Of a DNA stretch of 64,000 nt, positions 10,924 through 39,669 are shown in pieces. The DNA is from Prorocentrum cordatum (Eukaryota), in assembly GCA_963575745.1 (NCBI GenBank), contig CAUYUJ010000037.1, positions 558,001 through 622,000 of the forward strand, written 5' to 3'. Numbering within the stretch: position 1 is the stretch's first letter; each line of letters begins with the position of its first letter. The translations under genes were made by a program, and so were the position numbers. The notes below the pieces were generated by a model, which was given only the letters and a program-made list of their open reading frames with translations, ran no database searches and was not told the origin of the DNA.

Positions 10924-11338
10924 CAGGGCTATAGGGCTAGGGGGCTAAAGGGCTATAGGGCTATTGCGCTATAGGGCTATAGAGCTATAGGGCTACCTAT
11001 ACGAACACCCTTCGGGTGATAAGGAGGTTCGGGGGGGGAGGAACAAACGTCTCACTCGATCGGTCTCACTATCGATCTCACAATCGATCTCACTATCGGT
11101 CTCGCTCGATCGATCTCACTCGGTCGATCTCACAATCGATCTCACTCGATCTATTTCATTCGATCGTTCTCACAATCGAAATGACTATCGATCTCACAGT
11201 CGATCTCACTATCCATCTCACTCTCGATGTCACAATCGATCTCACATTCGGTGTCGTTACCGATCTCGCTATCGATATCACAATCGATATCACAATCAAC
11301 GTCATCATCATCAACATCATCGTCATCAACGTCATCAA

Positions 11339-11374
<36 letters not shown>

Positions 11375-11730
11375 CATCATCATCACCATCATTGGGATAC
11401 CATCATCATCACCTCATCACCATCATCATCAACATAATCGTCATCACCATCATCATCATCATCACCGGGGCACCATCATCGTCACCATCATCATCGTCAA
11501 GATCTTCATCATCATCGGGAAACCATCATCATCATTATCATCATCATCATCGGAACACAACCATCATCATCATCATCATGATCATCATCATCATCATCGC
11601 ATCTTCATCATGAACAACATCGCCAGCATCATCGTCATCTGGACACCATCATCATTACCAACAACATCATCAACATCATCACCATCACCATCGGGACACC
11701 ATCATCATCGCCACCATCATCATCATCGTT

Positions 11731-11771
<41 letters not shown>

Positions 11772-16477: not shown

Positions 16478-16582
16478 TTGTATAGTCTGATTGGTTGTAG
16501 ACTGCAGGTTAAGTGGGAGGGGGTGTGGGCTCAGGTAGCCATTTTGGGTCCGTAGCGTTCGGCTCTGGCCGACGCGCGGGTG
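16478..16582 (+). repeat. Split direct repeat A1 (105 bp)
   Basis: Identical by eye to 31737-31841. Confidence 0.95.
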
Positions 16583-16655
16583 TTCCAGGGGGCCGCGGGG
16601 CGGCCATAACCACAGCCGTGCTAGTCCGCGGACTAGGTAGCGCGCCTGTGGTGCC

Positions 16656-19600: not shown

Positions 19601-22600
19601 GCGCGCCCTCGCGGATCTGGAGGATGCGCAGCTGGAAGCGCGCGCGCGGGAGCGTGCTGCGGCCGCCGACAAGGTTCCCCTGCAGGGGAGCCTCTCACGT
19701 GAGGGGTCGCGGAGTCGCTCGGCGCGGGGACGGGATCCCAGCCCGAAGCAGGGACCCCGACGCGAGCTCTTCGGTGCCATGCCCCCCATCCAACCCACGG
19801 GCCCACGACGGGGCTTGCTGGGTGATCGGGACCTGCTGGCACGCGATGGACGCGGGGGGGCCGCCCGTGGGGCCAATCCGCTCCTCGACGGGGCCTCGGT
19901 CCTTGGCCACCTCACTGGCCAGACGCCCCACGGGGGCGGCCTGGGTGGGGAGCGAGCTGGGGGTCCAGACGACGCCGGGGCGGCGGGCGCCCTGGGCGGG
20001 CTTGCAGTCGAGGCCGAAGCCCAGATTATCGAGCGCCTGGATCGCCAGAACCGCCTCACTGAACGCCACGTCCTCGCCGCCGAGCGGCAGGCGCGGGCCA
20101 CCGAGGGCGACAAGAAGGCCCGGGGCACCAGGGCAGGGATCGGTCGGGACGAGGAACTCGATCTTTACATAGCCCGGGGATGCAACACCTTCGTGGTTGA
20201 GGCCTGCGAGGGTATCACGGGGAAGGACTTGTTCGACTCACTCAAGCGCATGTGTGCGCACTCCAAGAGCACGCTCAAGACGATCGGGTTTCCCTGCCTG
20301 GTTACCAACCGTGTGGCACACGGCTACGCGGCGCTCGCCTTCGGGACGGGCCCTCACGACCTGGCGGTGGACGACTGCGTCCCCGCGCGCGACGAGGACT
20401 TCGATGGCTATCGGCTTCCTGTGGACGACAAGCTGGAGCCCCGCCAACGGCCCGCCACCCACATGGCGACCTGGTTCAAGAGGGCCCGGTGCGAGATCCA
20501 GATGTTCGAGTCCATCATAGGGGTCGCACACGGGGCGGAGCGTCGGCGGTCGTTGGGGTTCTTGGAGGCGGCCTTCGAGAGGGACCCATCGGAGTTCCCA
20601 GACCATTGGGTCAAGGATCTGTGGGAAGAGCTCCGAAGCACCTGGGTCGAGGAATTGCGGGAGCTGAGGCGCCGACTCTGTCGAGAGCTCGACACCGAGA
20701 ACCCGAGGAGGGAGGACATCAAGTATATCCTACTCATGCCGGAGAACGGCTACGATTTGCCCCGAACGTTCGACCTCGGGGACCCGAACGCCTACTACCA
20801 GCAGGTGGTCGTGCCCCGGCGCAAGGCCGCACTCACGCGCCTCCTCAATGGGCAGCTGAACGCCCACCTCACGAAGCGACCGCCCAAAGCGGGAGGGAGC
20901 GAGGAAATGGGCGATCCCCGGCCCACGGCGCAGGGGGATGACAGGCCCAAGGCGGGGGCTGGGCCCCAGCCGAAGGCGGGGCCCAAGGCGGGCACCGGGG
21001 CCCCAGCGGGGACAGCCCCCAAGAGGGCGTACCCAGCGGGCAAGGAACTAACACGCCCGGAGCGGACGCGATCCGTGGCGCATGCGCCCCGCAATAAGGA
21101 CAACGTCCCTATCTGCTGGGGGGCCACCACGCACATGGGCTGCTCGCGGAAGGCTTGCGATTGCCCTAACTCCCATGACCCCATCAAGTCAACGCGCGGA
21201 TTGGACTACTCGGTAGTCATGCAGCTCACGAGGCGCGGGGGGCTCCTTGGGACGCCCCGGATCGATCCCAAGCAGGTGGATGGGATGATTGCGCAGCTGC
21301 GCTCGCAAGCCAAGGCAGCCGAGGCCGAGAAGGTTGGCGAGGACACTTCCCCACCTGCTCCCCCTGACTCCCAGAAGGAAAAGGGCCGGGGCCGTGGCGG
21401 CGGCTCGCGAGCAGCGGGCGACCCGGGCCCGGGGCAGGCCCCGGACGACTACACCGCGCTCCAGCTTACCGCGATGGAATCCGACCTCCGGGAAGCGGTT
21501 AAGGGCCCCGACTTCGGATGGCTCGAAGACCACGACCACCCGCGCGCGGCGGCCACTTGGGACGCCCAGCCCGCGGGTGATGGGCCGGAGCTTCGCCTCA
21601 AACTCATGCAGGAGCTCGAAGCCGAGGGCATCTTCGCACCTCTGAAGGGAGCCAGCGAGTACTTGCAGAGCCACGTGCGCGGGCGCGTCTTGGGGGCGCG
21701 CCTGCGCGGGGAGCGGCTTACTCTGGAGCGAGCCCTCGAGGAAGCCGTGGACCGAGGCCATCGGGGTCTCAGCAGCGAGGCAGCCGACCTGCATGAGGCG
21801 CTTAGCTGCGCCGCAGGATACGTCACCGAGGGCGGGGCCGAGGTTGGCCCGGTTGCGTGGGACCCCGGCGGGCTGATAGGCCGCGGGTCCTATACCTTCT
21901 GGGACGGGGACACCCGCATCCAGTGGGACTTCATCGACTATCGGGACCGCCTCGGCCCTACAGAGGAGATGGGCCAGGCGATGGGCCTGGAGGTGGGCGA
22001 CACCGAGGAGCGGCAGTGCCTGCTACTGCACGTAGCTGCGGGGGTGCTCCTGCTACGCGCGGGCGAGGGCACAGGTGAGCCCAGCCCGGACGCGGTGCAG
22101 CAGTTGGCCGCGACGTATCGCCATGCACTATGGGAGGAGGCCCACGAGGCCCTGCGTGCCCTGGGCGACTCCCCGCCGTGGATCACGGCCCTGGAGGCCG
22201 ATGTCCGCTCCTACGTCCACGATGCGGTGCACCCGCACCACGACAAGGACTATCGCTGCCTGGCAGCATGCCCTGTCGCCGACCTCGACGCCGTCACGCT
22301 CCAGGTGCACCGTGTCAACGGCAGTGGGCGCCTATGCGTGGACCACCTAATGGGAACGGGCGTCGGCGCGGAGGATCACGTAATTCCGCTCCTGATCTGG
22401 CGCGGCCATATGCGCGCCTTGCGCCCACGCTCCCACGCGGAGGCGGCGGCCCTAGGCCAGCGCTGGGGGCACGCAGGACGCCTGTCCCGCGAGATCGTAA
22501 GTGTCGGCTGGCGCGAGATGCTCGATGAAGGCCCGGACGTTGAACCCACCGTCCCGGGCAAGAGCGCGCCCTGCACCCACTGCAAGGCAGCGGAAGGTCG

Positions 22601-25600
22601 GGCGGGCCGCGCAGTGGGACGCGCGCCGGCCTCGTTCGGGGAACATCCAGCCGACGTCCAGGCACGCCTCCTGGAGGCGAACGCGATGCCACTTCGACAC
22701 GACCCCGCGTTCGCGTACGGTTTGATCGCCCAGGAGGTGTACGCCGGTTCGGGAAATTGGTCGGCCGCGCTTCGCGCCGAGGGCATCCGGGTGCTGGAAC
22801 CGATCGAATATTACGACGACCCCCTCCGAGAATCCGGCCCACGGCCGGATCATGACACCCTCGACCCAGCGGTCCGCGCGCGCCTACAGGAGGCCGCACG
22901 GACCCCCATGGGCCCCGACGTGGCCAACGTTTGGTGCTGGGGTACCCCGTGTGGCTCGTACACCGACCTCGGGCTCATGGCCCAGCCGGGCGGGACCCCG
23001 CAGGGCACCCGCACGTGGGAGCACCCCGAGGGGGATGGCTCCAAAGAGTTCGAGCGCGTGGGTAACAGCCACACACAGTTCACGTGCGACACCTGCCGCA
23101 TCCTACACGACGCTGGCAAGGAGTTTCTCATCGAGTCCTCCTGCCCCTCGGGCCGCTACCCCAAGATTTGGGACCAGGCCCCGATGCACGAGCTGCGTCG
23201 AGCGACGGGGGCCATGATCGTCCCGATCCACATGTGCGCCTGGGGTAAGGCCCCGTCCGACGCGCCAGAGAGCCGCTATCGCAAGGGCAGCTGGTGGCTC
23301 GTCAGCCCCCGGCTGTACCTGCACGCTCTGTTGTTGGCGCGACGTTGCCCCCGTGACCACCACCACGTCGAGCTGAAGGATCACGTGCCGGGCTCGGGCA
23401 TTAAGCGCACCAAGGAGGCGCAGGTTTGGGCCCCCCGCCTTTGCGCCGCGTGGGCAAAGGTGTTGAAAGGGGCCTATCACCGCTGGTCGGTGAGCCAACT
23501 GCGTCGGCAGTTGGCGCCTATATGGGAGGATGGCCCGGGGGCGTCCCCCAAAATCGCCCGGGCGGAGGCGCCCGGGCGCCTGCAGGGCGTCGACTTCACT
23601 GGAATCGAGCGCCTGCAGGCCTCAGGGGACGGCTCAAAATGCGGTAGGCTTAGCCCAGCCATGCACCGAGCATTGGCGGGGCTTCCTAAGCCCCCATTGG
23701 GCAAGGCACAGGGGGAGGTGAGTGCGGGCAAGACTCGACCCCCTTGCGAGGATCCGGCCAGAGATATCGCGGAGGACCTCGACGGGTGCAGCCCGGCGGA
23801 GCTGGCCACGGTCTACCTGACCTTCTGCACGGAGCACCCTGAGTATGACCCCGAAGCCATGCGGACCCTGGTAGGGCTGGGGGATCAGCTCCTCCAGCGG
23901 ACGGGGTCCCTGAAGGAAGCGGCCGCGCTGCTTAGGCGCGCGCGCCACGAGCGCCTAGGCAACCCCCTTCGGGGCGTCCTGGGGGACAAGGTGCGACGGT
24001 GTTTAAGCCGAGAGCACTTCGAGTACGTCCGGGAGCTAGCGGAAGGGGGAGCCTCCGCGCGGCGGGGCGCGCCGCGGAGGCGCGAGCGAGCCCAACCGTA
24101 CCCCAGCGTGCGAGCCCACATCGACGAGGCCTACCAGAAGGTATGGGCGGATGTGACCTGGGGGATCGTCCTGGTGGCGTCCCAGGCGGCAGAGGGTTTT
24201 CTGACGGAGCTGGTGGAAGCCCCGCTGGGGAGGGTACCGAAGCAGCTACCGGACAGAACCTTATCGTCCGAAGGGCGTATGATCCATGCGATGCTCTCGG
24301 CCAACGCCGCCACACACAAGCGCGACCACCCGCCTGCCGTCCAGCCACGCCATCGGCAAGTGGCGAGGACGGCGGTATGGCATCGCGCGCGCCACCCCGG
24401 AGCGCGCCTCCTCTGCGCCAAGCGGGACGTCTCGCGGGCCTTCAAGTGGTTGGACATCGCCCCGGCGGACGTCGGGGACTTTGGCACCTCGTTACCGGGG
24501 GCCCACGCTGGCATCGAGGGGGACGTCAGGGTCGTTTACCTAGCCATGGTGTTTGGGTGGACGGGAGCCCCAGGCAATTACATGATGCTCGCCCTGGCGG
24601 CGAGGGAGCTCCACGAGAGCTATCGGCCTGGGGAGCCGCACTGGCACGACACCACCCACTTCCACTCGGAGTGGCTCATGGATGACCCTGTGGTGGTGGA
24701 GCCCGACATTGGGGTCCGACCGTGGATGGCCTGCGACGCGTTGGATGCCTCCATACGTGAGGTGTTTGGGTCCGAAGCAGTGAACGTCAGCAAGAGGGAC
24801 GCCGAGGGGGAGCCTTCCACCACGCAGATTATCTGGGGGCTCAGTATGGACTTCGAGCGCGAGCGAGTTGGACTCCCGGAGCCCAAGGCCATGAAGATGC
24901 GCTTCCTATTGGCGGAGCCGGAGCTGAGCTTCGGCTGCCGCATGGTCCGGCTGCGAACCGCGAGGGAGCTAAGTGGGCTCGGCCAGTTCTGCGCCTGCGC
25001 AGCTCCAGCCCTGAGCCTGGAGCTCCCAGCGGTCCACCGAATGCTGTCGGGTGACCCAGGTCAGGCCTACGTCCATCCGCCGGGCGACCCCGAGATGGTA
25101 GAGGCTGCGTGGGACGATTGGCACCAGACCTTGGATTGGCTGCGCGTCTGCTTTGAGATGCCGGTCGAGGGTAACTTCGAGACCTCCTTCGAGGGCCTGC
25201 TAGGCCTTCGCGAGGCCCTCGCACTCCCGGGGGCGCTCGGCAAGCTGCGCTGGCTGGGAGGCGATGCCACCCTGGATCGGATCGGTGCGCTGGACTGGTC
25301 CTCGCGCGAGTACATCGTGGCGGAGGCGGCTCCCTATCTGGAGACGCTCCGCTCCGCCCCTGGGGTCACTTGGCAGGGGGGGGGGGAGATCATCGCGGTG
25401 GTCGAACTCCTCTGTCTGATAGCCTTGGCGGCCGAGAAGGGCCCGGACTGGTTCCAGCTGCTATTGCCGTACGTCACTGACAACAGCAATGTCAGCCGCT
25501 GGCTGCGACGCCGCCGGGCGCGGAACGCGGTGGCGCGCCACCTGCTTCGAGTCCTGGCCATGCTGGAGCTACGGTACAAGTTCCGGGTCCTGGACGGGCT

Positions 25601-28600
25601 TTACTTACGGACTTACCACAACGAGCTGGCCGACTTCATTACTCGTGCCACGGTGGAGGAGGTACGCCAGCGGATGGCGGAGGCCGGATGGACCGAGCTG
25701 TCGCCGGCAGCACCGTGGGGCGAACTGGTGGAGGAGGCCGCCCAGCGCGAGCTGCGGATGCCAGGAGACGACGGGCCCTGGCGCGCGGCTGCACTCCAAG
25801 TCAAAGGAGCCCGGGAGGCCCTACCACGCTACGCCCCTCTGCAGGTCGAGGGGGCGCGGCTGCTGGAGGTGGGAACCGCGTGGCCCCCCTTTGGGGAGGC
25901 ATGGGAGAGCCTCGGTGGGTCGGCGCTGCTAGCGCCGTGGGATGTCGGTGACCGATGGGACCCGGACGACGGGGACCACCCCGAGGACCCCGCTGGGGCC
26001 CCGCGGACCCGCTGGCTGTGCGTGTCACTATCGGAGGACCCCGGTGGACGCGAAGCGACGGGCCTGGAGCGGCTACTGATCACCACTCGGCCACTGGCCG
26101 TGCTGCTCGACGCCCCCGTCAACTACGCTGCAGTGCGACTAGGGGCGCGCTTACGGCGCCTTGGCTATGTGGCACTCTCCCCAGAGACGCGCCTACTGTG
26201 CACGCACTTCGGCGACGTCACGGCACGCGCGCGGGCGGTCCAGGTTTGGGGTTGCGGGGAACGGGTTCGGGCATCGGGCCCCGTACCCCCCCTGGGACAG
26301 CCCTGCGTGGAGCCACGCGGCCTCTGCCAGCTCTGGAAGGAGGCAGGGCGGCCACCGCTGGATGAGCTCCGCCTGGACCTCGACAACGGCACCTTGCTCG
26401 TGGACCCTCGGATCTCGACGACGGGGGATCGCATGATGCCTTGGCCGCGGGGCACATGGCAGCCCGCGGGAGGCGGGCGGGCCCAGCGCGTGGTGATTCA
26501 TGATCCGCGCGGGCCCTGCCATACGGCACGGGCGAAGCCCGACCCGTTGAAGGGCTATGCGAACACCCTGATCCTGGAAGGGTCCGAGGGCGGCTGGACC
26601 GTGCGAGCCCTGCACCCGAAAGAAATCTGGTGCGCCCAGGGGGGCACGGCGGAGCTGTGGGATGCCTTGGGCCTTGGAGGTATGCCGATCGCCGAGCGCA
26701 TGCGGCAGGCCGCTCGTGCACTCCCGCGTCGCACGGCCCGCTGGGTGCTCCAGTGGGCGGAGCGCCTGCTGAGGCAGGCCGTAGAGGCAGCGAGCGCAAG
26801 CGAGGCACCCGGGGCGCGCGCGGGCGTCGGGCCCGATCACGACCGACTCGCTAATGACGAGATGGTTAAGCTGTGGCTAAAGGCCTGGCTTCAGGCCCCC
26901 GATCGCCCAAGCGGGCCATTCGAGGCTGCGCTGGAGGCGGGGAAGACGACGGACGACGCCGCTCGGTTGGCGGACCAGCTCGACCCCCCTGCTACCGCGC
27001 GGTCCACCGCAGCAGGGGTGGACGGGGCAGGCGGGGAGCGGGTCGGGGCGGTGACCTTCGCTGTTCCGGAAGGCGCGGGCATGCCCAGGCCAAGCGCCGT
27101 GGACGGCGTGGGCGGCGCGGCCCCACCCCCGCGCAAGGCCCGTCGGCGTACCCGCAGCGCCCCTGCTCCCGCGCTGGTGAAGCCCGCCGCCTGGCGGTAC
27201 GCCGGCGGGGGCGCCCCGAAAGGGATTCAAGGTGAACTCACCGACACCCGCGAGCTGGATGCGACCGCCACCGAGGCGATGTTGGCCAAGCTTGCCGAAG
27301 GGACGCGGGCCAATTACAGCGCCGGGTGGCGTAACTGGGTACTCTGGCGGAGGCTCCGAGGCCGGAGCCCATACCTGCAGGGGGAGACTCGGGACGCCCG
27401 CCTTACGGATGAGGATGACCTCATCCGGTATGTCGTGTACCTGTACAAGGTGATGAAGAGGCGAGCCACGACCATCCGCCAGCGCCTGTTCGCCATTCGA
27501 TATGCCCACACCCTGGCCGGGTTTGGGGATGTGACCTCCGATCGGCGCCGGCTCTGGACCACGATCGAGGGACTCCGCCGCTGGGACGGAAAGGCGAAAC
27601 GGAAGCTGCCGGCCACGCCCCGGATGTTGCGCTGGCTCCGAGAGTACTTGTTCGCCCACGGGACGGCCACGCGCCGGGAGGCGACCATCCTATGGGCGGC
27701 GCTTATGACGGGGTACTTTTTCATGCTCCGCGCGTCGGAGTATTTGGTCCAAGAGGACCGCTCCTGGAGTATGGGACGGGTGGTGCGTGGGCAGGACGTA
27801 CAGGGGATGCGCGGAGGTACACCCAGCGCAAGGCTCAGCGACTGCGATGAGGTAGTACTGACGATCACGTCGTCCAAGACGGACCAGTTTAACGCAGGTT
27901 GCGTACGCAACCATTACCGTTCGGGGGTGGAGTTGTGTGTCGTGGACGCACTCGCCGACCTCCAGAGGGAGCTGCCGGACCGGTTTGGACGAGGAACCGA
28001 GGCGGGGCTCCCCCTGTTCCGCCGGCCCGATGGCCACCCGATTATGCGGGAGGAGGTGCAGGGGCTCCTCCAACTCGCGGCTGCCGCCTGCGGCGTGGAC
28101 GCAGGCCAGATGGGATCCCACTCCCTGCGCATCGGGGGCGCGACGGCGTTGTACCACGCCTGTCGCGACCTGGAAGCGGTCAAGAGGTTCGGGAGGTGGT
28201 CCACGGACGCCTTCCACGGATACCTCTGGGAGGACCATCGGCGTCAGGCTCCGTTCGCCCGAGGCATGGCGGAGGGCCACGCCTTATTGGCCCCGGACGC
28301 CCGCGGTGACGACGGCGCCGTGACCGGCGCCCGCCCCGACCAGTTGGCCGGGAGCGATCCGCCCCAGTTTGGGAGCGATCTGAGGCCCTCGGAACGCCCG
28401 GCCTGGGCGCCCGGGCGCCCCCCCTGGGCGCGCCCTTCGGCGCGAGCAGGGTCAACTACGGAGGAGGAAGGAGAGGAGGAATTGGTGAGATACGAGCCAG
28501 GGCGAGGAGTTAATGGGCGTGTGGGAAAGCAGCAGGCGGGTCCCACGGGTATTCAGGTCAGGGCGGGGGCTTCGCGTTGTGGGGGTATCCCGGTGGACCT

Positions 28601-30968
28601 CTCGCCCTCGACCCCCCTTTCGCTACCGCTCCCGATCGCCCCAGGCACGCCCACCTCCTCTTGGTCCTCTCATCCGCAGCCATCTCCCACTCCAGAGCGA
28701 GGCGCGCGAGCAGCGCGCGCACCCCAGCCCCGCGCGCCAGCCGCGCCGTCGCCCCGCGCTCCGGCAGCGTGCATCATGGGATTCCTGGTGGGCCTGGTGG
28801 CCCCGGACCAGAGCAAGGCGCGTGGCCATGACTACAGCATCATGGCGGTGAACCCCCTCGGCGTCGTCGTCTCGGGGGCCGCGCTGTCGGACGAGCTCCG
28901 GAGTGCCGCCCACAACATCCTGTACACGGTGGTGAACGAGCTGGACAGCGAGGACCTCGTCGAGATGGTCAACCACGACCACGAAGCAGCCCCGTGCATC
29001 GCGGCGGCTTGCTTGGCCGCGGGGGCGAGCGAGGACCACGGCCAGCTGGTGATCGTCGACGGCAAGCGGGGTGCGTGGGGGGTGGGCGCGGGGCCGAATA
29101 TCAAGGTCCAGCGCCAGGCGGCCAAGCTGGCGCTCGCCTTGGCCCAGTTCCAGGGGCAGCCCATGCCGGAGCTCCGCGAGCTCTGCAAGCACAACAAGGG
29201 GCTGCTCGACATGATGCGCACAGTGGACGCGGAGGCGGTCGTGGAGCTCACCGACGACGACGCCTCGAGCAGGGGCGAGGGGAAGTCGACCCCAGCCCCG
29301 GTCCTCGAGGCGGGAGAGGACGCGGTCACCGCGGCGCTGGCGCGTGCGGCCATCCAGGCTGCCGCGCGGCGCCAGAGCAAAGGCGCTCCAAAGGCGCGCC
29401 CGCGGCCCGCGCGGTCGCCGGGCCAGGAGCGCCTCGCCGAAGAGGTCCGCAAGCGCGAGAGGCGCCCTGCGCCCTTGCGCTCGCCTTCGCGCGCGAGGCG
29501 CCGCGATCGCGAGCGCGATGCGCCTCGCGATCGCGGGCGCAGGGGACAGGAGGAGGAGGCCGTCTTGAAACCCAAGACGGGCGGCGCCCCCCCGAAGGCC
29601 GACATCGTGAAGCGTGAGGCCGTCCTGAAGCCCAAGAGCGGGGGGGCGCCGCCGCGGTCCTTCGAGGTGAAGACCGAGGTGGAGGAGGCGCCAGGCGCGG
29701 GGGACGGGCCGCCCCAGCGCCAGCCGCGCTCGAGGAGCCGCCGTAGGCGCAAGGAGGAGCAGCGCCAGGGCGCCCAGCAGCAGCCCAGTGACCAGCACGA
29801 CGAGGGCGAGTCCATCATCCGCATCGAGCGGGTACCGCACCACGTCGATGCCGAGGTGGTCAGGCAGGTGGTCGTGCCCTTCGGGGTCGTCAAACACATC
29901 GCCTTCCTGTACGACCACCGCCACAAGCGGGAGCCGTGCGTGCTGGTGGAGTTCCAGCGCCGCGCTGACGCAAAGCGCGCGCGGGAGTGCATGAGGTCGA
30001 ACTATCGGTTCTACAAGACGGACCCGTGCACGGTGGTCACGGAGTGGGCGAGCCGGCCTCGCGGCCCTGACCCAGGCAGCGACGGGGAGGATGGGCCGAC
30101 CATCCAGCCGCCTGCCTGCCCGACATGCGCACTCAAGATGCGCTGGAGCTCCTTTGACCCGGGAGACGGTTGGGGTTGCGAGATGTGCCCCGCGGGCGGA
30201 GCTAACAGCGGAGCCCTGCGGTGGCACTGTAAGGGGTGCGACGTGAGCTACTGCGAGGCTTGCCGCGTCGCCTTCGGCAAACCCAAGACGGTGGTGGAGA
30301 AGGCCCGGCGGAGCGGCCACACCGTGCGGGAGGCGCCGGGCCCCAGTGTCGGCCATGGCGAGCGCCCCAGCACGGGTGCCACGGGTGCGGGGGCTGAGGG
30401 GGACCGCCCGCCGGGCGACCTCAGCTGGCCCAAGCGTGAGAGGTCGCCCAGCCGCCACCGGCCCAAGCGCGAGAGGTCGCCCAGCCACAGTCTGGCGCGG
30501 GACCCAGCGTGGGCGCGGCGCGGCGACACCCCGCCCGGCCGCACGCGGCGTAAGACCGGGAAGCACGCTGGGCAGCTTCGCGCTCCTCGCGGCGGCTGGT
30601 ACGAGCAGGAGAAAAAGCGGCGGCGTGCTGCCGCCGCGGAGGCTGCCGCGGGCGGGGGTGGGATCCCAGCCTGGCGTGGCAAGGGCGCGGGCGACAAGGG
30701 CGGCAAGGGCGGCAAGGTCAAGGGCAAGTACTCCGGCAAGGCCGCCAAGGGCTCCAAGAGCGGCGGCAAGGGCGACAAGAGCGGCAAGGGCGGCCACTCC
30801 AAGGGCGACCAGGGCAGCCGCGGCCGGAGTGAGCGCGACTGGCCCAGCGCGGACGGTCGCGCGTCGAGGGGCGGCGATGGCAGCAGCCCCCGGGACCCCA
30901 GTGAGCGCGGCGGAGACCGCAGCGGAGGCGAGAGCCGCGACCGCCGGGGGAACACGCCCTCCATCTAG
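16656..30968 (+). CDS. 4770-aa polyprotein: hydrophobic N-terminus, Gag-like/CCCH, C5-MTase-like, RT, RNase H, degenerate MTase-like, tyrosine recombinase, dsRBD-like motif, RRM, Zn finger, RS/GK-rich tail
   Basis: 14.3-kb uninterrupted ORF. RT: KRDVSRAFKW, MVFGWTGAPGNY, WLMDD. RNase H: GGDAT, VELL, YVTDN, HNELADFITR. YR: FFMLRASEY, SKTDQ, SHSLRIGGATAL, FGRW...GYL. Confidence 0.92.
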   Translation: MAVGFLGAHLMILVTGGALTVQGALGWLPFGRGGHEVPAPTPPALPGPTAPPAGGGGRGKGRGPPAKPAPAGGKGRGPQAKPPGTPGVPPPPRSGSTTTTTTAGIGRVGEGEPTGSPATPAYGGNNEPTGAPGQPSAPGNRTGDGEPDLPRGPDGYWGWSGWVPHLPHWWAGRSEPPPPPPPPTPPPEAGPGPGWGFAAWVFEVAGYGAWVSSPDHPGTIRTSGGWFGSAVDRLGVKMLGYWWETAVLCFALGIFTFVLGALAFIVNTAAQPMLWAAGGLRWAWYQITRCCQRRGGDGPGAHLPPPPPTPLLVRWRGPGLGGVVETEFYTKGVRGRGTNRAYNHVLLRKHGQVARISCNFADRYRLDRHGLNIKIGQVLGCTSRKWRLNLEETGNVHLCRAVECASCPVAHPMHVDQYAAIDHTQIVDLAEHGRATACRAVGVGLRKVFGVVKWLLCSPWSVLGWLCRGRPEPRYITDATGYRRLDIDSESEVEAEERPCQAAQVGVQLAGGARPLQPEGCGDRGMQEATVLLQEDAEVSDVPRPGHCLNAQVHLCAHHAQKYRSTLIGRKCSLPTCLRMAKGSCGGGPMCGEHLRRDEGHTVRVEATVQPGILGGLRRRMRARAPSPARVRDWTAHAADGVGIAAEPVYPPPLPPPAAPPPPAVAPSVDVEPTGAQALTSGPQPRRTRSAEARASGRSRSADRGAPGDRIAHHGWLQEPLLVKVCPILPGDPRGAEEAHGAPPASPWFILLGECEGLDARGTGGDARLIIGTSLEGVRVEVPASEVVRHPPPLEDGRYPIDWINRLLYEVPQGAREVGLRVIAHHIPQDLLAMLRQEQWGGVDVESASGWRRRYLTNTERQQLQHDPVRTLGHHRRGGAQGAPPAPGMEGLPRPAPVAALSRLAAAAAGVSEDAEEPDPLEMFMDSLRAEDLKGRGGQAAALSALGMAADLLGVPLDQAERQLRRRVAQVAAAGPLGSDLERALADLEDAQLEARARERAAAADKVPLQGSLSREGSRSRSARGRDPSPKQGPRRELFGAMPPIQPTGPRRGLLGDRDLLARDGRGGAARGANPLLDGASVLGHLTGQTPHGGGLGGERAGGPDDAGAAGALGGLAVEAEAQIIERLDRQNRLTERHVLAAERQARATEGDKKARGTRAGIGRDEELDLYIARGCNTFVVEACEGITGKDLFDSLKRMCAHSKSTLKTIGFPCLVTNRVAHGYAALAFGTGPHDLAVDDCVPARDEDFDGYRLPVDDKLEPRQRPATHMATWFKRARCEIQMFESIIGVAHGAERRRSLGFLEAAFERDPSEFPDHWVKDLWEELRSTWVEELRELRRRLCRELDTENPRREDIKYILLMPENGYDLPRTFDLGDPNAYYQQVVVPRRKAALTRLLNGQLNAHLTKRPPKAGGSEEMGDPRPTAQGDDRPKAGAGPQPKAGPKAGTGAPAGTAPKRAYPAGKELTRPERTRSVAHAPRNKDNVPICWGATTHMGCSRKACDCPNSHDPIKSTRGLDYSVVMQLTRRGGLLGTPRIDPKQVDGMIAQLRSQAKAAEAEKVGEDTSPPAPPDSQKEKGRGRGGGSRAAGDPGPGQAPDDYTALQLTAMESDLREAVKGPDFGWLEDHDHPRAAATWDAQPAGDGPELRLKLMQELEAEGIFAPLKGASEYLQSHVRGRVLGARLRGERLTLERALEEAVDRGHRGLSSEAADLHEALSCAAGYVTEGGAEVGPVAWDPGGLIGRGSYTFWDGDTRIQWDFIDYRDRLGPTEEMGQAMGLEVGDTEERQCLLLHVAAGVLLLRAGEGTGEPSPDAVQQLAATYRHALWEEAHEALRALGDSPPWITALEADVRSYVHDAVHPHHDKDYRCLAACPVADLDAVTLQVHRVNGSGRLCVDHLMGTGVGAEDHVIPLLIWRGHMRALRPRSHAEAAALGQRWGHAGRLSREIVSVGWREMLDEGPDVEPTVPGKSAPCTHCKAAEGRAGRAVGRAPASFGEHPADVQARLLEANAMPLRHDPAFAYGLIAQEVYAGSGNWSAALRAEGIRVLEPIEYYDDPLRESGPRPDHDTLDPAVRARLQEAARTPMGPDVANVWCWGTPCGSYTDLGLMAQPGGTPQGTRTWEHPEGDGSKEFERVGNSHTQFTCDTCRILHDAGKEFLIESSCPSGRYPKIWDQAPMHELRRATGAMIVPIHMCAWGKAPSDAPESRYRKGSWWLVSPRLYLHALLLARRCPRDHHHVELKDHVPGSGIKRTKEAQVWAPRLCAAWAKVLKGAYHRWSVSQLRRQLAPIWEDGPGASPKIARAEAPGRLQGVDFTGIERLQASGDGSKCGRLSPAMHRALAGLPKPPLGKAQGEVSAGKTRPPCEDPARDIAEDLDGCSPAELATVYLTFCTEHPEYDPEAMRTLVGLGDQLLQRTGSLKEAAALLRRARHERLGNPLRGVLGDKVRRCLSREHFEYVRELAEGGASARRGAPRRRERAQPYPSVRAHIDEAYQKVWADVTWGIVLVASQAAEGFLTELVEAPLGRVPKQLPDRTLSSEGRMIHAMLSANAATHKRDHPPAVQPRHRQVARTAVWHRARHPGARLLCAKRDVSRAFKWLDIAPADVGDFGTSLPGAHAGIEGDVRVVYLAMVFGWTGAPGNYMMLALAARELHESYRPGEPHWHDTTHFHSEWLMDDPVVVEPDIGVRPWMACDALDASIREVFGSEAVNVSKRDAEGEPSTTQIIWGLSMDFERERVGLPEPKAMKMRFLLAEPELSFGCRMVRLRTARELSGLGQFCACAAPALSLELPAVHRMLSGDPGQAYVHPPGDPEMVEAAWDDWHQTLDWLRVCFEMPVEGNFETSFEGLLGLREALALPGALGKLRWLGGDATLDRIGALDWSSREYIVAEAAPYLETLRSAPGVTWQGGGEIIAVVELLCLIALAAEKGPDWFQLLLPYVTDNSNVSRWLRRRRARNAVARHLLRVLAMLELRYKFRVLDGLYLRTYHNELADFITRATVEEVRQRMAEAGWTELSPAAPWGELVEEAAQRELRMPGDDGPWRAAALQVKGAREALPRYAPLQVEGARLLEVGTAWPPFGEAWESLGGSALLAPWDVGDRWDPDDGDHPEDPAGAPRTRWLCVSLSEDPGGREATGLERLLITTRPLAVLLDAPVNYAAVRLGARLRRLGYVALSPETRLLCTHFGDVTARARAVQVWGCGERVRASGPVPPLGQPCVEPRGLCQLWKEAGRPPLDELRLDLDNGTLLVDPRISTTGDRMMPWPRGTWQPAGGGRAQRVVIHDPRGPCHTARAKPDPLKGYANTLILEGSEGGWTVRALHPKEIWCAQGGTAELWDALGLGGMPIAERMRQAARALPRRTARWVLQWAERLLRQAVEAASASEAPGARAGVGPDHDRLANDEMVKLWLKAWLQAPDRPSGPFEAALEAGKTTDDAARLADQLDPPATARSTAAGVDGAGGERVGAVTFAVPEGAGMPRPSAVDGVGGAAPPPRKARRRTRSAPAPALVKPAAWRYAGGGAPKGIQGELTDTRELDATATEAMLAKLAEGTRANYSAGWRNWVLWRRLRGRSPYLQGETRDARLTDEDDLIRYVVYLYKVMKRRATTIRQRLFAIRYAHTLAGFGDVTSDRRRLWTTIEGLRRWDGKAKRKLPATPRMLRWLREYLFAHGTATRREATILWAALMTGYFFMLRASEYLVQEDRSWSMGRVVRGQDVQGMRGGTPSARLSDCDEVVLTITSSKTDQFNAGCVRNHYRSGVELCVVDALADLQRELPDRFGRGTEAGLPLFRRPDGHPIMREEVQGLLQLAAAACGVDAGQMGSHSLRIGGATALYHACRDLEAVKRFGRWSTDAFHGYLWEDHRRQAPFARGMAEGHALLAPDARGDDGAVTGARPDQLAGSDPPQFGSDLRPSERPAWAPGRPPWARPSARAGSTTEEEGEEELVRYEPGRGVNGRVGKQQAGPTGIQVRAGASRCGGIPVDLSPSTPLSLPLPIAPGTPTSSWSSHPQPSPTPERGARAARAPQPRAPAAPSPRAPAACIMGFLVGLVAPDQSKARGHDYSIMAVNPLGVVVSGAALSDELRSAAHNILYTVVNELDSEDLVEMVNHDHEAAPCIAAACLAAGASEDHGQLVIVDGKRGAWGVGAGPNIKVQRQAAKLALALAQFQGQPMPELRELCKHNKGLLDMMRTVDAEAVVELTDDDASSRGEGKSTPAPVLEAGEDAVTAALARAAIQAAARRQSKGAPKARPRPARSPGQERLAEEVRKRERRPAPLRSPSRARRRDRERDAPRDRGRRGQEEEAVLKPKTGGAPPKADIVKREAVLKPKSGGAPPRSFEVKTEVEEAPGAGDGPPQRQPRSRSRRRRKEEQRQGAQQQPSDQHDEGESIIRIERVPHHVDAEVVRQVVVPFGVVKHIAFLYDHRHKREPCVLVEFQRRADAKRARECMRSNYRFYKTDPCTVVTEWASRPRGPDPGSDGEDGPTIQPPACPTCALKMRWSSFDPGDGWGCEMCPAGGANSGALRWHCKGCDVSYCEACRVAFGKPKTVVEKARRSGHTVREAPGPSVGHGERPSTGATGAGAEGDRPPGDLSWPKRERSPSRHRPKRERSPSHSLARDPAWARRGDTPPGRTRRKTGKHAGQLRAPRGGWYEQEKKRRRAAAAEAAAGGGGIPAWRGKGAGDKGGKGGKVKGKYSGKAAKGSKSGGKGDKSGKGGHSKGDQGSRGRSERDWPSADGRASRGGDGSSPRDPSERGGDRSGGESRDRRGNTPSI
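22725..23480 (+). other. C5 cytosine DNA-methyltransferase-like domain 1 within the polyprotein
   Basis: Motif I-like EVYAGSG (22734), motif IV GTPC (Cys at 22950), motif VI-like FLIES, motif VIII-like HMCAWG...RYRK, C-terminal VWAPRLCAAWA. Confidence 0.75.
24200..25650 (+). other. Reverse transcriptase and RNase H domains
   Basis: D-containing motif KRDVSRAF, MVFGW, WLMDD at 24672-24686; RNase H D-E-D-D residues between about 25258 and 25645. Confidence 0.9.
25850..26770 (+). other. Second, degenerate methyltransferase-like domain
   Basis: RLLEVG (motif I-like), AVLLDAP (motif VI position), LLCTHFGDVTARARAVQV (motif VIII-like), VRALHPKEIWCAQG (motif IX-like). No PC motif seen. Confidence 0.55.
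27280..28235 (+). other. Tyrosine recombinase (integrase) with N-terminal core-binding region
   Basis: TRANYSAGW, LRASEY (R), SKTDQ (K), HSLR (H,R), GRW (W), GYL (Y): full R-K-H-R-W-Y set. Confidence 0.93.
29810..30050 (+). other. RRM-like domain
   Basis: RNP2-like IIRIERVP, FGVVKHI, RNP1-like PCVLVEF, helix RADAKRARECM. Confidence 0.75.
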
Positions 30969-31077
30969 GCGCGGAGCTCCCCCCCCCCGTACCCCGACGC
31001 CAGCGCCCGCGGCATCGCGGGCGCGGGCTGACGGCGGCGGCCTGTGAGTGAGTCGGCCCTCCTCTCAGCCCACCGTG

Positions 31078-31211
31078 CGCAGGTGGCGCCTGCGATCCTT
31101 GAGCCTACGGTGCGCAGGTGGCGCCTGCGAGCTTGTTTCTTTTAGCCTACGGTACGCAGGTGGCGCCTGCGATCTCTTTCTTTAGCCTACGGTACGCAGG
31201 TGGCGCCTGCG
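31078..31211 (+). repeat. Four tandem copies of hairpin CGCAGGTGGCGCCTGCG, period 35-42 bp, in the element 3' UTR
   Basis: Copies start at 31078, 31113, 31155 and 31195. Stem CGCAGG/CCTGCG; linkers share agcctacggt. Confidence 0.9.
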
Positions 31212-31527
31212 ATCCTCCCTCTTGGAGGAGTTTAACGCTGCGCGCACGTCGCGTGCTTCCTGGACCCGGCCGTGCTGCGCGTCTTGCGCGCCGTGCGGTC
31301 GGGGCCACACTTGCGCTCTGCGCCCGGCGCCTCGTGCGCCGCCACCCTTTTCGGTTCTTTTGCGCGCATCGCGCACGCGCCGCGCCCGCGCTCTGGGTGC
31401 GCGGGCGCGGAAGGCCTCAAGGTTGCAGGCAAGTGGCCGCGCGCGCGAGGCTCTTGCAGCCTCTGATCCCGCCCTCGCACTCGGGCGGGGCGCCCCCGCG
31501 CGCGCGGCTGCGTCTTTCTTTTCTCAT

Positions 31528-32087
31528 GGCCGAGCGGCCGCAGGCGTGCCAGAGCGCGAGCGCGCGGGCCGTCAGGGCCCACGCGCTCGCGTTGAGCGTG
31601 GGGCCACCAGGGCCCACGCTCGGCGGAGATGCGCGTCGCCACGCTGCCATGAAAATACCTTCGCCCTGTCCTGTCCCTCTCTCGTCCCCTCCTCTCCTCC
31701 TCCTCCTCCGTTGAGTGCACGCGTATCTCACTTAACTTGTATAGTCTGATTGGTTGTAGACTGCAGGTTAAGTGGGAGGGGGTGTGGGCTCAGGTAGCCA
31801 TTTTGGGTCCGTAGCGTTCGGCTCTGGCCGACGCGCGGGTGCCCACCCACCCCGCTTTGCTCCCAGACGCTTGCGTCGGCCGAGCGGCCGCAGGCGTGCC
31901 AGAGCGCGAGCGCGCGGGCCGTCAGGGCCCACGCGCTCGCGTTGAGCGTGGGGCCACCAGGGCCCACGCTCGGCGGAGATGCGCGTCGCCACGCTGCCAT
32001 GAAAATACCATCGCCCTGTCCTGGTCCCTCTCTCGTCCCCTCCTCTCCTCCTCCTCCTCCGTTGAGTGCACGCGTATCTCACTTAAC
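31528..32087 (+). repeat. B1-A2-spacer-B2 terminal repeat block
   Basis: B1 31528-31736, A2 31737-31841, 36-bp spacer, B2 31878-32087. B copies differ by one substitution and one 1-bp indel by eye. Confidence 0.95.
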
Positions 32088-33084: not shown

Positions 33085-36000
33085 CAGCCCGCCCCCTGTG
33101 CCTGCACGAGGTGCTTGAGGCACTGCACCCACGCTCTCCCAGGGAGAGCCGCTGGTGTCGACTAAAACAGGAGGGCTTCCGCGCAACATGTCTCGCCCTT
33201 GGTCTCGCTGTGCGTGCAATCGCTGTGAGTACAATAATGTACTGCTGTCGCAAGACCGCATATGCCTGGGATGTAAGCGACAGGCGAAGCTGTACAAACC
33301 GCGCTCTTCCTCTTCCAAGGCCGACGCCGTCAATCTTGATTCTGTCGACCAGCCGAAAAGCGGCAAGGGCAAGGACAATGCTCATCATACCAGTGCAGCT
33401 GCTGCGTCCTCGTTGGACGTCCCTGCCCTTCTCAAACTGGCAGTCAAGGCTACCGTGCATTCTGATTTGAAGAAGTTGCTCCAGGGCGAGGTGGCCAAGC
33501 TCGGGCCTGTGGTGTCGGCGGGGGGGCGACGGCCCCGCCGAGGCGCTTCGGCGCGCCGTGGGGACGTGGAAGGACGCGGACCACAAGCACACCCAGGCGG
33601 TCAGCAACGTCGTGAGGCCCCAGGCCAACCTCGACGTTGCGGTCCAGCGAGAGAAGGCAGCCGCCCTCGTGCCGCCATGGCCCTCGCGGAGGGCGTCGGA
33701 AGGGGACGAGAAGCGCGAGGAGGGCGAGGGGCAGAAGCTCAAGTTCTCCCTCACCTGAGATCGTGCTCTGTTCGGCGGCCTGGATGAGTTAGAATGTGAA
33801 GAGAACGAACGCGCTGATCTGAAGAAGGCCAAGAAGGATCTTGAGCATCTCCAGGACCATCTGACGGGCAAGGAGGCCGAGGTCTCGGTCATGTTCGAGA
33901 AGGCGCGCTCCGTCAAGCAGGCCGTCGCCGAGCGCATGAAGAAGAAGCGCAGGACCGAGGCGAATGTCGCTGCAGGTGACGGCGCGAAGGGCGATCAGGG
34001 CGCCCAGGCCGCTGCCGACGGCGCTGGCGGTGACGCTGGCCACGGTTCCCCAGCCGCGGAGGCGGCGGCGGCGGCCGACACGCCCGTCGGCGATGCAGAC
34101 GAGGAGGAGCTACGGATCGCCGCGGAGAAGATCTCGGCGGTCAAGCTGCTCGCGCAGAAGAACAGTTTGGAGGAGCAGTCGGCGAACACCGCCAAGTCGC
34201 TCGGCAAGGGCAAGGGCGGGAACTCGCTCGACGCCGAGGCCGTCGGCAAGGGCGGCGGCCGCTCGTGACTAGCCACAGCCAGCACGGGCGACGGAGAGCA
34301 GGCGTCGGCCGTGGCGGGCGCGGGCGGGGGCTGCTCAGGGGGCCCGTTTGGGGTGCAGGAGGACAAGCAGCGCGACTTGTCCACATTTTTGTTCGGCAAC
34401 CTCACGCGTATTGGCGAGAAGTCTTGGAAGTCCTTTTCCCGTGGCAAATTCGACGACGTGGGGGTGGTCGAGACTCACGTCGCTGAGTCCGACGTTGCAT
34501 CTTGGGACAAGAAGGCTCGACGTTCGGGCCTCAAACGCTTGGCGAACTCCGCGGGGGGCCGGGAGAAGCGAGTTTCACAGCAGCAGCCGGCGAGGTCCAG
34601 CGAGGGGGGCGAGTGGGTGCTCTGCAAGGGCCATCTGTAGGTGCACACGTTGCGTTCGCAAGCAGGCGCCAGGCCTCTCCGAGCTGCTGGCCATCGGCAT
34701 CTTGACGGATTTCAAGTAGTGATTGTACACATGTGCGGCTACGGCATCGCCATCATCACCTTTACGGGCATCCTTCGGTGGGTTTCAGAGGCCCCAATGA
34801 GGCCAGGTGCAAGTAGCTGGGCTCGCTGCTGAACCTCCCGAGCATTCCGTGGATCGTTATCGGCGACTTCAACTCCAGTGCAGACAGCATTGAGAAGTCG
34901 CAGTTCTTGAAGCGGTTGCATGGGCGCCCCAGCGCGATGCGCGCAGACATCGAGGCCACTTGCAACCAGGGCTCCAGGGGCTCACACATCGACTGTCTCG
35001 TCGTTCCAGAATTAGCGCAGTCTTACACCGCAGCAGTCTTCCCAGCGGCCGCGGCCCCATGGATACCGAGCGCTGGTCTCCCGGTGCGTCTGCGGCGGTC
35101 AGGTCAGCAGCTGCAGGCGCGGGATTTAGATAGCACCGCAAGTTGCCGCAGGCAGTGCGCCCTCGAGTTGCCCCCGCGCCAGGCCCCGAGAGCAGCCGCG
35201 CGAAGGCAGAGAATGGGGGGCGCAGCCGCCGGCGCAGCTCCGCGAGGGAAAAAACAGTTCGATGATTTCTTCAGCGATCTTTTGCAAGCGCCTGAGGTCG
35301 AAGGCAACCCCGACCCCGACGAAGCTCGGAGTGACGCTAGTTTTGAATACCCCAATGGCCTCGAAAGCGAGGACATGGGCGAGGCAGGTTCTGTTTCCGA
35401 GGAGGGCCCGCGGGCCCGCGAGTTTGAGTTTAGACCGACTGCGCAAATAGATGTTGATAAAGGGCCCCCCGCAAAGTCTGGCGATTCCCGGAGCAGCGTC
35501 GACCCTGAAGCTTTGGGCACGGCCCCCCTGGGCCTCAGGTTAGGCGGCCTTGGCAAGGTACAGACCCAGCAATTATGCCCCAAGCCCCCCGGCATCTAAG
35601 TGCAGCGGCATTTCAAACCCCGGCGATTCACCGTCACCCACCCCCCCCCCCCCCCCCCTCCCCCCCCCGAGGCCACGTGGCTGGAGAGTAAGAGGCAGCT
35701 GGGTTTCACCACAGCTGGCGACATTCCCCCCCCCCCCCCTCCCCCCCCCTTTCCTCCGCCCCATAGCTTCTTGGCTCAGCCCGCCTGCCGCAGCGCGGGC
35801 CACTTCTTCATTGCGCGCGTCCTGGGTGAGCACCGTTGAGCTCGCCATTCGCGCGCGCCGCAATGTGCAGGACCCCCCTGGCATCGCGAGGCGCGATGCT
35901 CCCAGGTTTCGCATCGGCGTTGCTCATCGGCAGGAGGGGCGCAGGCAGACTCCCTGAGAGTGACGTCCTGCCAGGATGGTGGACACGAGTTCTCGCGCTG

Positions 36001-39000: not shown

Positions 39001-39630
39001 TGTATCGTGTTGCGTCGTGGGGGAAGAAGGCTTTCTTGGTCCGATTACGTCTTCTCAGAGCCACGGTCGACACGCTTGGACCGGAGAAGGAGTTGCAGGG
39101 GTCTGGCCCTAGGAAAAAGTCTGCGCCCCCTCCTGTCCCCCCTCCCGCTCCGTCTGTTGCGCAACGGTTCACCGCAGGCCACCGCCTGGCAGAGTTCGGA
39201 CGTCGCTGCCTCTGTTGTTGTAGCTCCGCCACGATAGCCCGTCAGTGGAGGGGCGCGCCCTGTTTCCAGCCGTCGCTGGTCAACGGCGTGGTTTTCGGGG
39301 CACCGCCAGGGGCAAAGCTGCGCATAGCTGGGGGGGGGGGGGCGCATGAAACACATATGATGCGTTCGCATGGTACCCTCAAGCTCTGGTTATGTTCGAG
39401 CTGTGGGTATTTTGCTAGTCAAATGATCAGAGGCCTTGGGCAACCGTGCCCCATGGCCCCGAATTCCAATCGAGCCGAGTATTTATCCAGAATCGAGAAG
39501 GGGCAATGGCCCAAGATTCTGAGTCGGGCCGAGCTCGCTCGTCGGGGCCCCTAGGTCTTCGGGATTCGCTTCGCGTCTGGCCTCGCTCGCTCACTCTTCC
39601 TCCTCCTCCTCCTCCTCCTCCCCCCTCCTC
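33051..39630 (+). mobile_element. Decayed non-LTR retrotransposon (LINE 1 of 2): ORF1, APE endonuclease, RT, RNase H, C-terminal Zn finger
   Basis: ORF1 from ATG 33188 (RCACNRC...CLGC, coiled coil) to 34268. APE: FGNLT, VVETHV, WIVIGDFN, SHIDCLVV. RT: PLPKK, LLDIVGFYDNV, IWVDG. RNase H: EDASGG, VPRGELRA, ITDD, GNTVADMIA. HETH...CSSCG; stop at 39554. Many frameshifts and stops. Confidence 0.88.
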
Positions 39631-39647
39631 CGCTCCGCCGCCGCCCC

Positions 39648-39669
39648 TCCGTAGCCATTTTGGCCCCAG
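39648..39669 (+). other. Near-complete dinoflagellate spliced leader copy
   Basis: TCCGTAGCCATTTTGGCCCCAG matches DCCGTAGCCATTTTGGCTCAAG at 20 of 22 positions. Confidence 0.88.

Follow-up and report, generated by a model that had tools for sequence, protein, structure and literature searches.

The stretch analysed here (the window) comprises 64,000 nt of the genome of the dinoflagellate Prorocentrum cordatum (contig CAUYUJ010000037.1, positions 558,001–622,000) and holds a tyrosine-recombinase (YR) retrotransposon whose open reading frame (ORF) continues past the recombinase into 730 codons with the appearance of an RNA-binding protein. Does this segment, referred to below as the cassette, belong to the element, of what is it made, is it maintained in sibling copies, and what could it do for the retrotransposon that carries it? 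The best reading of the evidence sees the cassette as a mosaic of nucleic-acid-binding parts of host type, consisting of a domain (the X domain) with a predicted fold like that of double-stranded RNA-binding domains (dsRBDs), an RNA recognition motif (RRM) joined to a cysteine-rich finger, and Arg-rich and Gly/Lys-rich spacers, and holds that one element lineage gained it behind the point where the ancestral polyprotein ended. As judged from the variants among its copies, it is kept by purifying selection. It is proposed, at a probability of roughly 0.45, that it serves as a selected accessory RNA-binding module, acquired and kept by that lineage, which would act on the element's own RNA.

Position of the cassette within the element

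On the forward strand and with the standard code, the following features were delineated.

16478–16582, + strand: terminal repeat A1, the left end of the element; 105 nt, 100% identical to A2 (31737–31841)
16641–30968, + strand: polyprotein frame of the element; a single ORF of 4,775 codons, closed by TAG at 30966–30968
27318–28295, + strand: tyrosine recombinase domain; HSLRIGGAT at 28119, 46 relatives, Pfam match below cut-off
28296–28775, + strand: low-complexity linker; 160 codons, open in frame, unconserved, without coding signature
28776–30968, + strand: cassette; 730 codons from the Met (28776–30965) plus the stop
28827–29240, + strand: X domain; cassette residues about 18–155, dsRBD-like predicted fold, strands 1 and 2 separated by an inserted helix
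29301–29810, + strand: disordered stretch 1; residues 176–345, Arg 19%, Ala 15%, Glu 11%, Pro 11%
29811–30083, + strand: RRM; residues about 346–436, from Pfam RRM_1 and fold, with degenerate RNP2 (IIRIERV) and RNP1 (REPCVLVEF)
30117–30263, + strand: eight-Cys zinc-finger-like domain; residues 448–496, CPTC ... GWGCEMC ... WHCKGC ... CEAC
30294–30965, + strand: disordered stretch 2; residues 507–730, KRERSPS twice, KKRRR and a Gly/Lys-rich tail
31528–32087, + strand: right-end block B1-A2-B2, from repeat comparison

Besides repeat A, a unit B of about 210 nt occurs twice at the right end (B1 at 31528–31736, B2 at 31878–32087; 99% identity), giving the order A–coding–B–A–B. This is an arrangement of split direct repeats and agrees with a DIRS/PAT-type layout; the same order is given as typical of DIRS retrotransposons in the account of SymbioDIRS-Dnmt3 by de Mendoza et al. 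(2018; PMC5890265). The near-identity of the A and B repeats points to a recent insertion, and by repeat layout and recombinase together the host element is a young, multicopy DIRS/PAT-type YR retrotransposon. No further copy or fragment of it was detected elsewhere in the 64-kb window. The G+C content is about 70% across the element region against about 60% in the flanks.

Within the recombinase, both of the boxes HSLRIGGAT and GRWSTDAFHGYL were found. The Pfam Phage_integrase model gave 19 bits, under its cut-off of 27.1, and the relatives of the domain comprise 46 proteins of 668–2,128 residues (28–56% identity, E down to 2e-113), three of which have a precomputed PF00589 match. The recombinase ends near 28295, and its conservation stops near LLAPDAR.

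A first-pass annotation, made from the sequence alone, had the cassette start at a Met at 28777 and run for about 730 amino acids. The length agrees with that found here, while the Met codon begins one base earlier, at 28776, the frame read from 28777 containing ten stops. Every motif that had been listed (dsRBD-like motif, RSRSRRRR, RRM, Cys finger, KRERSPS and GKGGK) lies in frame from 28776, with WGVGAGPNIK at 29076, RSRSRRRR at 29727, the RRM start IIRIERVP at 29814, CPTC at 30117 and, in the later part, WHCKGCDV at 30222, KRERSPS at 30432 and 30465 and GKGGK at 30702. Codon periodicity is strong in the cassette, the G+C content at the three codon positions (GC1/2/3) being 0.72/0.58/0.89.

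Retention and selection in sibling copies

An NCBI protein of 729 residues (P0002), encoded on a 2,869-bp contig, is 97% identical to the cassette and shares its first Met, with in-frame indels only. Logan contigs of four sequencing runs, three organism-labelled and one a metagenome, cover all 30 bins of positions 27500–31500, with 2,382 contigs in one run. Single contigs bridge the recombinase end and the linker (e.g. 28214–28455), the linker and the cassette (28492–28984 and 28652–29276) and the cassette and the 3' untranslated region (3'UTR; 30395–31052). Sibling copies, in P0002 and the four runs, thus keep both the cassette and its junctions, and the earlier claim that the cassette lies inside the terminal repeats is supported by the identity of those repeats (A1/A2 and B1/B2) together with the bridging contigs. 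That the cassette might be a neighbouring host gene outside the element was ruled out by the repeat boundaries and the same contigs.

Selection was assessed at 33 variant sites within 27500–30968, taken from the best-supported 40 of 201 variant rows. Among these listed variants, four synonymous and no nonsynonymous changes fell in the recombinase, three and five in the linker, and 12 and nine in the cassette, for which 21% synonymous changes would be expected from substitutions of the same kinds (binomial p=4e-4). Six synonymous and two nonsynonymous changes of the cassette lie in its three folded domains. Between the window copy and P0002, one of 290 folded residues differs, compared with 14 of 440 disordered residues (Fisher p=0.007). 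The first-pass annotation had named absence of the cassette from sibling elements, or a frameshifted and neutrally evolving cassette in them, among the observations that would speak against it; the synonymous excess, 12 of 21 changes, goes in the opposite direction.

Composition of the cassette

An exhaustive HMMER search with cassette residues 1–520 as query returned 37 proteins at E≤0.001, and these relatives divide the cassette into separable modules. The named protein relatives, those of the recombinase included, come from Prorocentrum, Polarella, Symbiodinium, Pyrodinium and Noctiluca, and these names, together with a spliced-leader relic at 39649–39669 of the window, mark the genome as that of a dinoflagellate. 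It should also be noted that three proteins with 82%, 67% and 36% identity to segments of the cassette (P0003, P0007 and P0009, respectively) come from a EukProt set named Pyramimonas sp. CCMP1952; because every other named relative is of dinoflagellate origin, the label and the content of this set may be mismatched. Metagenome contigs, scanned with the cassette protein and an exact 29-nt pattern, and viral contigs gave no match, and a sequence search of solved structures with the cassette gave insignificant rows only (best E 0.15, the RRM of PPIase E).

A model of the X domain was built from a 23-sequence alignment, with a predicted local distance difference test score (pLDDT) of 72.8 and a predicted template modelling score of 0.72. 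Its core consists of helix–strand–(inserted helix)–strand–strand–helix, with extra N-terminal strands and C-terminal helices, and the segment WGVGAGPNIKVQRQAAKLALALA covers the third strand and final helix of that core. With a structural aligner independent of Foldseek, dsRBD proteins occupied 45 of the 50 best rows, the best matches being Loquacious dsRBD3 and TRBP2 (Z 5.9, root-mean-square deviation 2.8–2.9, 71/72 and 71/76 residues aligned), with Loquacious, TRBP, RDE-4 and R2D2 all within the top 11 rows. The dsRBD-like motif that had been noticed by eye in this way gains support, at a middling Z, at the level of the predicted fold. No Pfam family matched the X domain or its 23 members, a search of the Protein Data Bank with the X profile returned insignificant rows only and no dsRBD among them, and language-model look-alikes offered no lead (best score 0.89, unnamed clusters). 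Pro73, Ala78 and Trp101 are invariant in the alignment, the element copy included; K110 and the R112 column, both located where the last helix begins, are near-invariant in the family, the element's copy having Gln at the Arg column.

The X domain belongs to a family of domains of about 150 residues (P0005, P0010–P0038, P0090–P0106) which occur as two to four repeats per dinoflagellate protein. The element's copy scored 98 bits against the family hidden Markov model (profile positions 17–138 of 151), a value that is inflated because the profile contains that copy; independent pairwise support comes from phmmer, with E 5.7e-16 to P0005. The domain was found in about 40 clusters from dinoflagellate sources, including, by the sources' names, Pyrodinium, Symbiodinium and Noctiluca. 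The X-repeat proteins measure 300–900 residues, apart from one gene model of 1,664 residues; in several of them an RRM_1 stands at the N-terminus, and KH and CCCH domains occur in one. A profile search of longer proteins returned 25, among which P0002 was the sole element-borne one. In a tree of 98 X domains, a branch of 3.03 changes per site leads to the element pair, which has a weak (70) link to one host repeat and no host sister with support, while the third X repeats formed a clade of their own (support 99). The long branch without a supported host sister indicates that the element's domain is no recent copy of a sampled host gene, and no donor could be named from this tree. This unnamed dinoflagellate-wide family, for which there is no Pfam model, merits a description of its own.

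The RRM was confirmed, the Pfam RRM_1 model scoring 22.7 bits against a cut-off of 20.7 when the cassette was scanned alone and 19.7 bits, just below the cut-off, when the whole 4,775-residue protein was scanned. The predicted fold agrees, with the order beta-alpha-beta-beta-alpha-beta (E13–17, H25–35, E38–44, E54–59, H62–72, E87–90) and with block pLDDT values mostly of 84–93 and one of 65; Foldseek returned 456 matches to the model at E≤0.001, the top rows all being RRM proteins. The eight-Cys finger follows the RRM via a conserved SDGE spacer. The RRM–spacer–finger unit is collinear in P0004 (37% identity, E 3e-28) and P0006 and is partly kept in P0008 and P0009, while P0003 spans only the RRM end and most of the finger, and P0022, P0028, P0030 and P0037 have a finger without an RRM. 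The multi-Cys finger of the earlier annotation is therefore conserved in relatives and is joined to the RRM as one unit. Its first two Cys residues (CxxC) are invariant in ten aligned sequences and the other six are conserved wherever the finger is covered. The pLDDT of the finger region is about 60–80, and the Pfam B-box models remained below their cut-offs, both for the cassette finger (ANCHR-like B-box, 16.4 against 27 bits) and for its relative P0037 (zf-B_box, 16.9 against 24.1 bits).

The remainder of the cassette is made up largely of two disordered stretches. Stretch 1 contains RSRSRRRR and a duplicated AVLKPK.GGAPP and is the site of the in-frame indels relative to P0002, one contig omitting 93 nt in frame; stretch 2 has 21% Gly and a 9-nt tandem repeat at 30678–30794. 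The cassette had been described as SR-protein-like, a description that did not hold. An SR protein has, C-terminal to its RRM, an RS domain of at least 50 residues that is rich in consecutive RS/SR dipeptides. Stretches 1 and 2 contain eight and nine such dipeptides (17 in total), with at most five in any 50 residues, and their Ser content is 5% and 11%. With so few RS/SR dipeptides the disordered stretches form no RS domain, and an SR protein was ruled out.

Occurrence of the cassette among related elements

To place the cassette among related elements, the recombinase relatives were surveyed beyond the recombinase. Similarity to the X domain, to the RRM–finger unit or to the whole cassette was found in none of the 46, a survey that covered proteins of 668–2,128 residues whose gene models may be cut. 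Thirty-eight of them end within 145 residues of the recombinase, in agreement with the earlier statement that YR elements normally end near this domain. The other eight have longer tails, three with DnaJ and one with a weak Tpt1 match. The DnaJ domains (P0065, P0067 and P0068) scored 40.7–52.3 bits, above the cut-off, and begin 45–115 residues after the recombinase; these relatives suggest that, in this clade, accessory modules have been added repeatedly at the C-terminus past the recombinase. Full-text searches of the literature turned up no report of a YR element that combines a dsRBD-like domain with an RRM and a zinc finger.

Fusion or separate reading frame

Whether the cassette is translated as the C-terminus of the polyprotein or as a separate ORF2 is a question independent of its function, an ORF2 being compatible with any function proposed. 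It had been taken to be fused in frame after the recombinase, and the frame is indeed open throughout the linker, with no frame-0 stop in 160 codons, so that ribosomes initiating upstream will read into the cassette. The linker has no coding signature, however, its GC1/2/3 of 0.74/0.72/0.72 being without codon periodicity, unlike both flanks, and fusion is accordingly less certain than had been assumed; translation may yield a fusion, a separate ORF2 product, or both.

That the cassette is an ORF2 starting at Met 28776, reached by trans-splicing at a linker AG or by internal initiation across a linker that is a chance-open spacer, is an alternative to which we would give appreciable but less than even odds. 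In its favour, besides the missing periodicity, the linker variants listed above look neutral, the linker cannot be aligned to the tails of the relatives, and its bases when shuffled keep the frame open 7.4% of the time. The cassette also has a higher GC3 (0.89) than the polyprotein (0.80), and the 97% identical P0002 and the 67% identical P0007 (63 aa) share the start MGFLVGLVAPD, although such shared starts may just reflect the choice of the first Met by gene callers. The spliced leader, 22 nt long in dinoflagellates, caps all mRNAs of these organisms according to the description in PMC5585692, against which the leader consensus was checked. Against an ORF2 stand the absence of stops in the linker, compared with three and two in the other frames, and a chance of about 2–3% that a linker would be both in frame and open; nor is there a spliced-leader relic in the linker, where the best match was 12/21, the same as in shuffles. 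A relic at this place would have pointed to capture of the cassette from a processed mRNA, an idea that this search did not support.

Two further observations concern the linker. A stretch of 195 nt at 28485–28679, in frame, starts with GTGAGA and ends with CCGCAG and is, on its sequence, a candidate intron. In two runs, contigs from a diverged subfamily depart from the window sequence at 28467 and keep GTAAGAC at the same place.

Proposed function and alternatives

As an accessory RNA-binding module, the cassette would bind structured or duplex parts of the element's transcript, of which the following repeat is an example.

31067–31214, + strand: tandem repeat in the 3'UTR; 3.8 copies of a 40-nt unit with palindromic core CGCAGGTGGCGCCTGCG, 100 nt past the cassette stop

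Folded as RNA, this hairpin array is predicted to form long stems (−78.8 kcal/mol, z = −3.27), and it is a candidate structured-RNA element on this modelling. The cassette might help to assemble, protect or nuclear-target the ribonucleoprotein that undergoes reverse transcription, and could be produced as the C-terminus of the polyprotein, separately from Met 28776, or in both ways.

A number of observations weigh against this proposal. Foldseek with the X model returned nothing at E≤0.001 (best E 0.09), and Pfam dsrm matched none of the 23 X-domain sequences at E≤10. The best Z of 5.9 is middling by the yardstick of the aligner (under 8), which is why the domain is termed a dsRBD-like predicted fold and no membership of the dsRBD family is claimed. 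Canonical dsRBDs contact RNA through their strand 1–2 loop and through helix 2, which has a Lys-rich start; in the X domain that loop is predicted to be replaced by a helix (residues 73–81). Loquacious dsRBD3 and Staufen dsRBD5, which bind proteins rather than RNA, are among the best structural matches. In a usual RRM, aromatic residues in RNP1 and RNP2 stack on RNA; they are absent in the cassette RRM and in all aligned relatives, which have Cys, Gln, Glu or Leu instead. As to selection, the evidence consists of the best-supported 40 of 201 variant rows and one sibling protein, and a minority of contigs in one run carry four single-base deletions, so that some copies may be broken, unless these are sequencing errors.

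Several of these observations would be explained if the cassette were a protein–protein adaptor that recruits host splicing, trans-splicing, export or chromatin factors and not an RNA binder. The lack of aromatic residues in RNP1 and RNP2 of all aligned members and the protein-binding dsRBDs in the top structural rows fit such a role, as do a Tyr-Arg/Lys-Phe motif after RRM helix 2, kept in five of the six members that cover the region (P0008 is without it), and the presence of DnaJ, a chaperone-recruiting module, at the same position in related elements. We nevertheless consider an adaptor improbable, since in host proteins the X domain co-occurs with RRM, KH and CCCH domains and the Lys and Arg columns of its last helix are near-invariant in the family, although the element copy departs from the latter. 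It is also unlikely that the cassette suppresses RNA silencing by sequestering element-derived duplex or small RNAs or by mimicking a Dicer partner, and so shields a many-copy element. Many viral silencing suppressors are dsRBD proteins, the predicted fold resembles the dsRBDs of Dicer partners, the element occurs in very many variant contigs and its 3'UTR is predicted to be able to form long duplexes. However, the host proteins with X domains resemble ordinary RNA-binding proteins, a helix is predicted in place of the loop with which canonical dsRBDs touch RNA, and the RRM–finger half of the cassette would be left unexplained.

Were the cassette a passenger, that is, a host gene fragment transduced by chance and of no benefit to the element, its absence from all 46 recombinase relatives, its GC3, which differs from that of the rest of the element, and the frameshifts in a minority of contigs of one run would be in keeping. 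This is very improbable in view of the synonymous excess among the listed variants (p=4e-4), the conservation of folded over disordered residues (p=0.007), the X-domain branch of 3.03, which argues against a recent copy of a sampled host gene, and a frame that is kept in fragments of 67–82% identity (P0007 and P0003) and in RRM–finger units of 35–44%. A more far-reaching scenario, for which the chances again seem small, would make the cassette a spliced-leader-capped ORF2 that acts in counter-defence or hijacks RNA processing, with the X domain an undescribed dinoflagellate-specific class of dsRBD that blocks Dicer-type silencing or captures host RNA machinery, and with the recombinase C-terminus a general docking site at which host modules are exchanged, DnaJ having been taken up by the relatives and the RNA-binding cassette by this element.

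Other features of the element and the window

Upstream of the recombinase, one further region of the polyprotein was delineated.

23988–25340, + strand: reverse-transcriptase-like region; LMDD at 24675, language-model resemblance, lead only

Its language-model look-alikes include RVT_1 clusters, with 21 at 0.9 or above and the best named one at 0.94; the Pfam scan of the polyprotein gave no RVT or RNase H match. A methyltransferase suspected by eye at about 21000–23000 received no Pfam support, and the sequence search of solved structures with the rest of the polyprotein yielded nothing but insignificant rows. Codon periodicity is present over 17472–28295 (GC1/2/3 0.73/0.54/0.80). The first 200 or so codons of the giant frame (16641–17240) are Pro/Gly-rich and have no such periodicity (0.82/0.74/0.75 and 0.72/0.78/0.73), and the polyprotein may truly start at a later Met (17367 or 17472), preceded by an open untranslated leader.

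A 13-nt core of the spliced leader, GTAGCCATTTTGG, is present in A1 (16535–16547) and A2 (31794–31806), with 15/21 over the full motif; three exact copies of this core occur in the window against 0.01 expected. The terminal repeat of the element may carry a relic of the host spliced leader or may mimic it. A spliced-leader relic with two mismatches was also found at 39649–39669, within the start of a 1,051-codon frame (39419–42571) which had no Pfam match and which, going by its sequence, looks like a retroposed gene.

The ORF at 34817–35596 weakly matches an endonuclease/exonuclease/phosphatase model (16.9 bits, below the 24.5 of the cut-off) and may be the remnant of an element of the long interspersed nuclear element (LINE) type. 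A (TCA)n microsatellite of about 320 units (11302–12262) lies within 10925–12720 and is flanked by tandem arrays of 8 nt (AGGGCTAT), 12 nt and 8–10 nt (CCCGGGCA).

Significance and comparison with known systems

Methyltransferases and chromodomains are among the host domains that retrotransposons are known to have taken up. Retroposition has shaped the genomes of dinoflagellates, which are huge and rich in repeats. An abundant element with an RNA-binding-type module of its own and a leader core in its terminal repeat bears on how such elements are expressed in a trans-splicing host and on how they might evade silencing.

The acquisition of host domains by DIRS-type elements is already known from the account in PMC5890265. 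SymbioDIRS-Dnmt3 and the other DIRS/PAT-type elements, as presented there, share with the present element a dinoflagellate host, the A–coding–B–A–B order, a recombinase and, on the language-model resemblance noted above, a reverse-transcriptase-like region, and SymbioDIRS-Dnmt3 has likewise taken a host-type domain into its coding region. In that element, by the same account, Pol contains a cytosine methyltransferase as its cargo and a separate ORF encodes the recombinase, whereas here a single 4,775-codon frame takes in the recombinase and continues into a cassette of RNA-binding type, and Pfam detects no methyltransferase. The DnaJ-bearing elements (P0065, from Polarella glacialis by NCBI, P0067 and P0068) are closer, belonging to the same recombinase clade (45–48% identity) and having an appended domain; they differ in that the cargo is a J-domain without similarity to the cassette.

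The X-repeat host proteins (e.g. P0018, P0020, P0005 and the Noctiluca protein of the P0023 cluster) have in common with the element the X domain, an RRM and Gly/Lys-rich low complexity. In these the RRM comes first, followed by tandem X repeats and no Cys finger, whereas the element has one divergent X domain before its RRM–finger unit. The dsRBDs of the Dicer partners Loquacious, TRBP, RDE-4 and R2D2 resemble the X domain in a predicted alpha-beta-beta-beta-alpha core that superposes on almost the entire target domain with Z 5.2–5.9 and in an Ala-Ala-x-x-Ala-Leu helix signature; the X domain differs from them in that dsrm leaves 23 of 23 sequences unmatched, in the helix within the strand 1–2 loop and in its extra N- and C-terminal elements.

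LINE-1 ORF1p is an RRM-containing RNA chaperone with a coiled coil, encoded upstream of Pol. Like ORF1p, which is also mentioned in PMC5890265, the cassette would be an element-encoded RRM protein that coats or chaperones the RNA of its own element. The two belong to unrelated element classes, and the cassette is set apart by its place downstream of the recombinase and by having a dsRBD-like domain and a Cys finger alongside its degenerate RRM.

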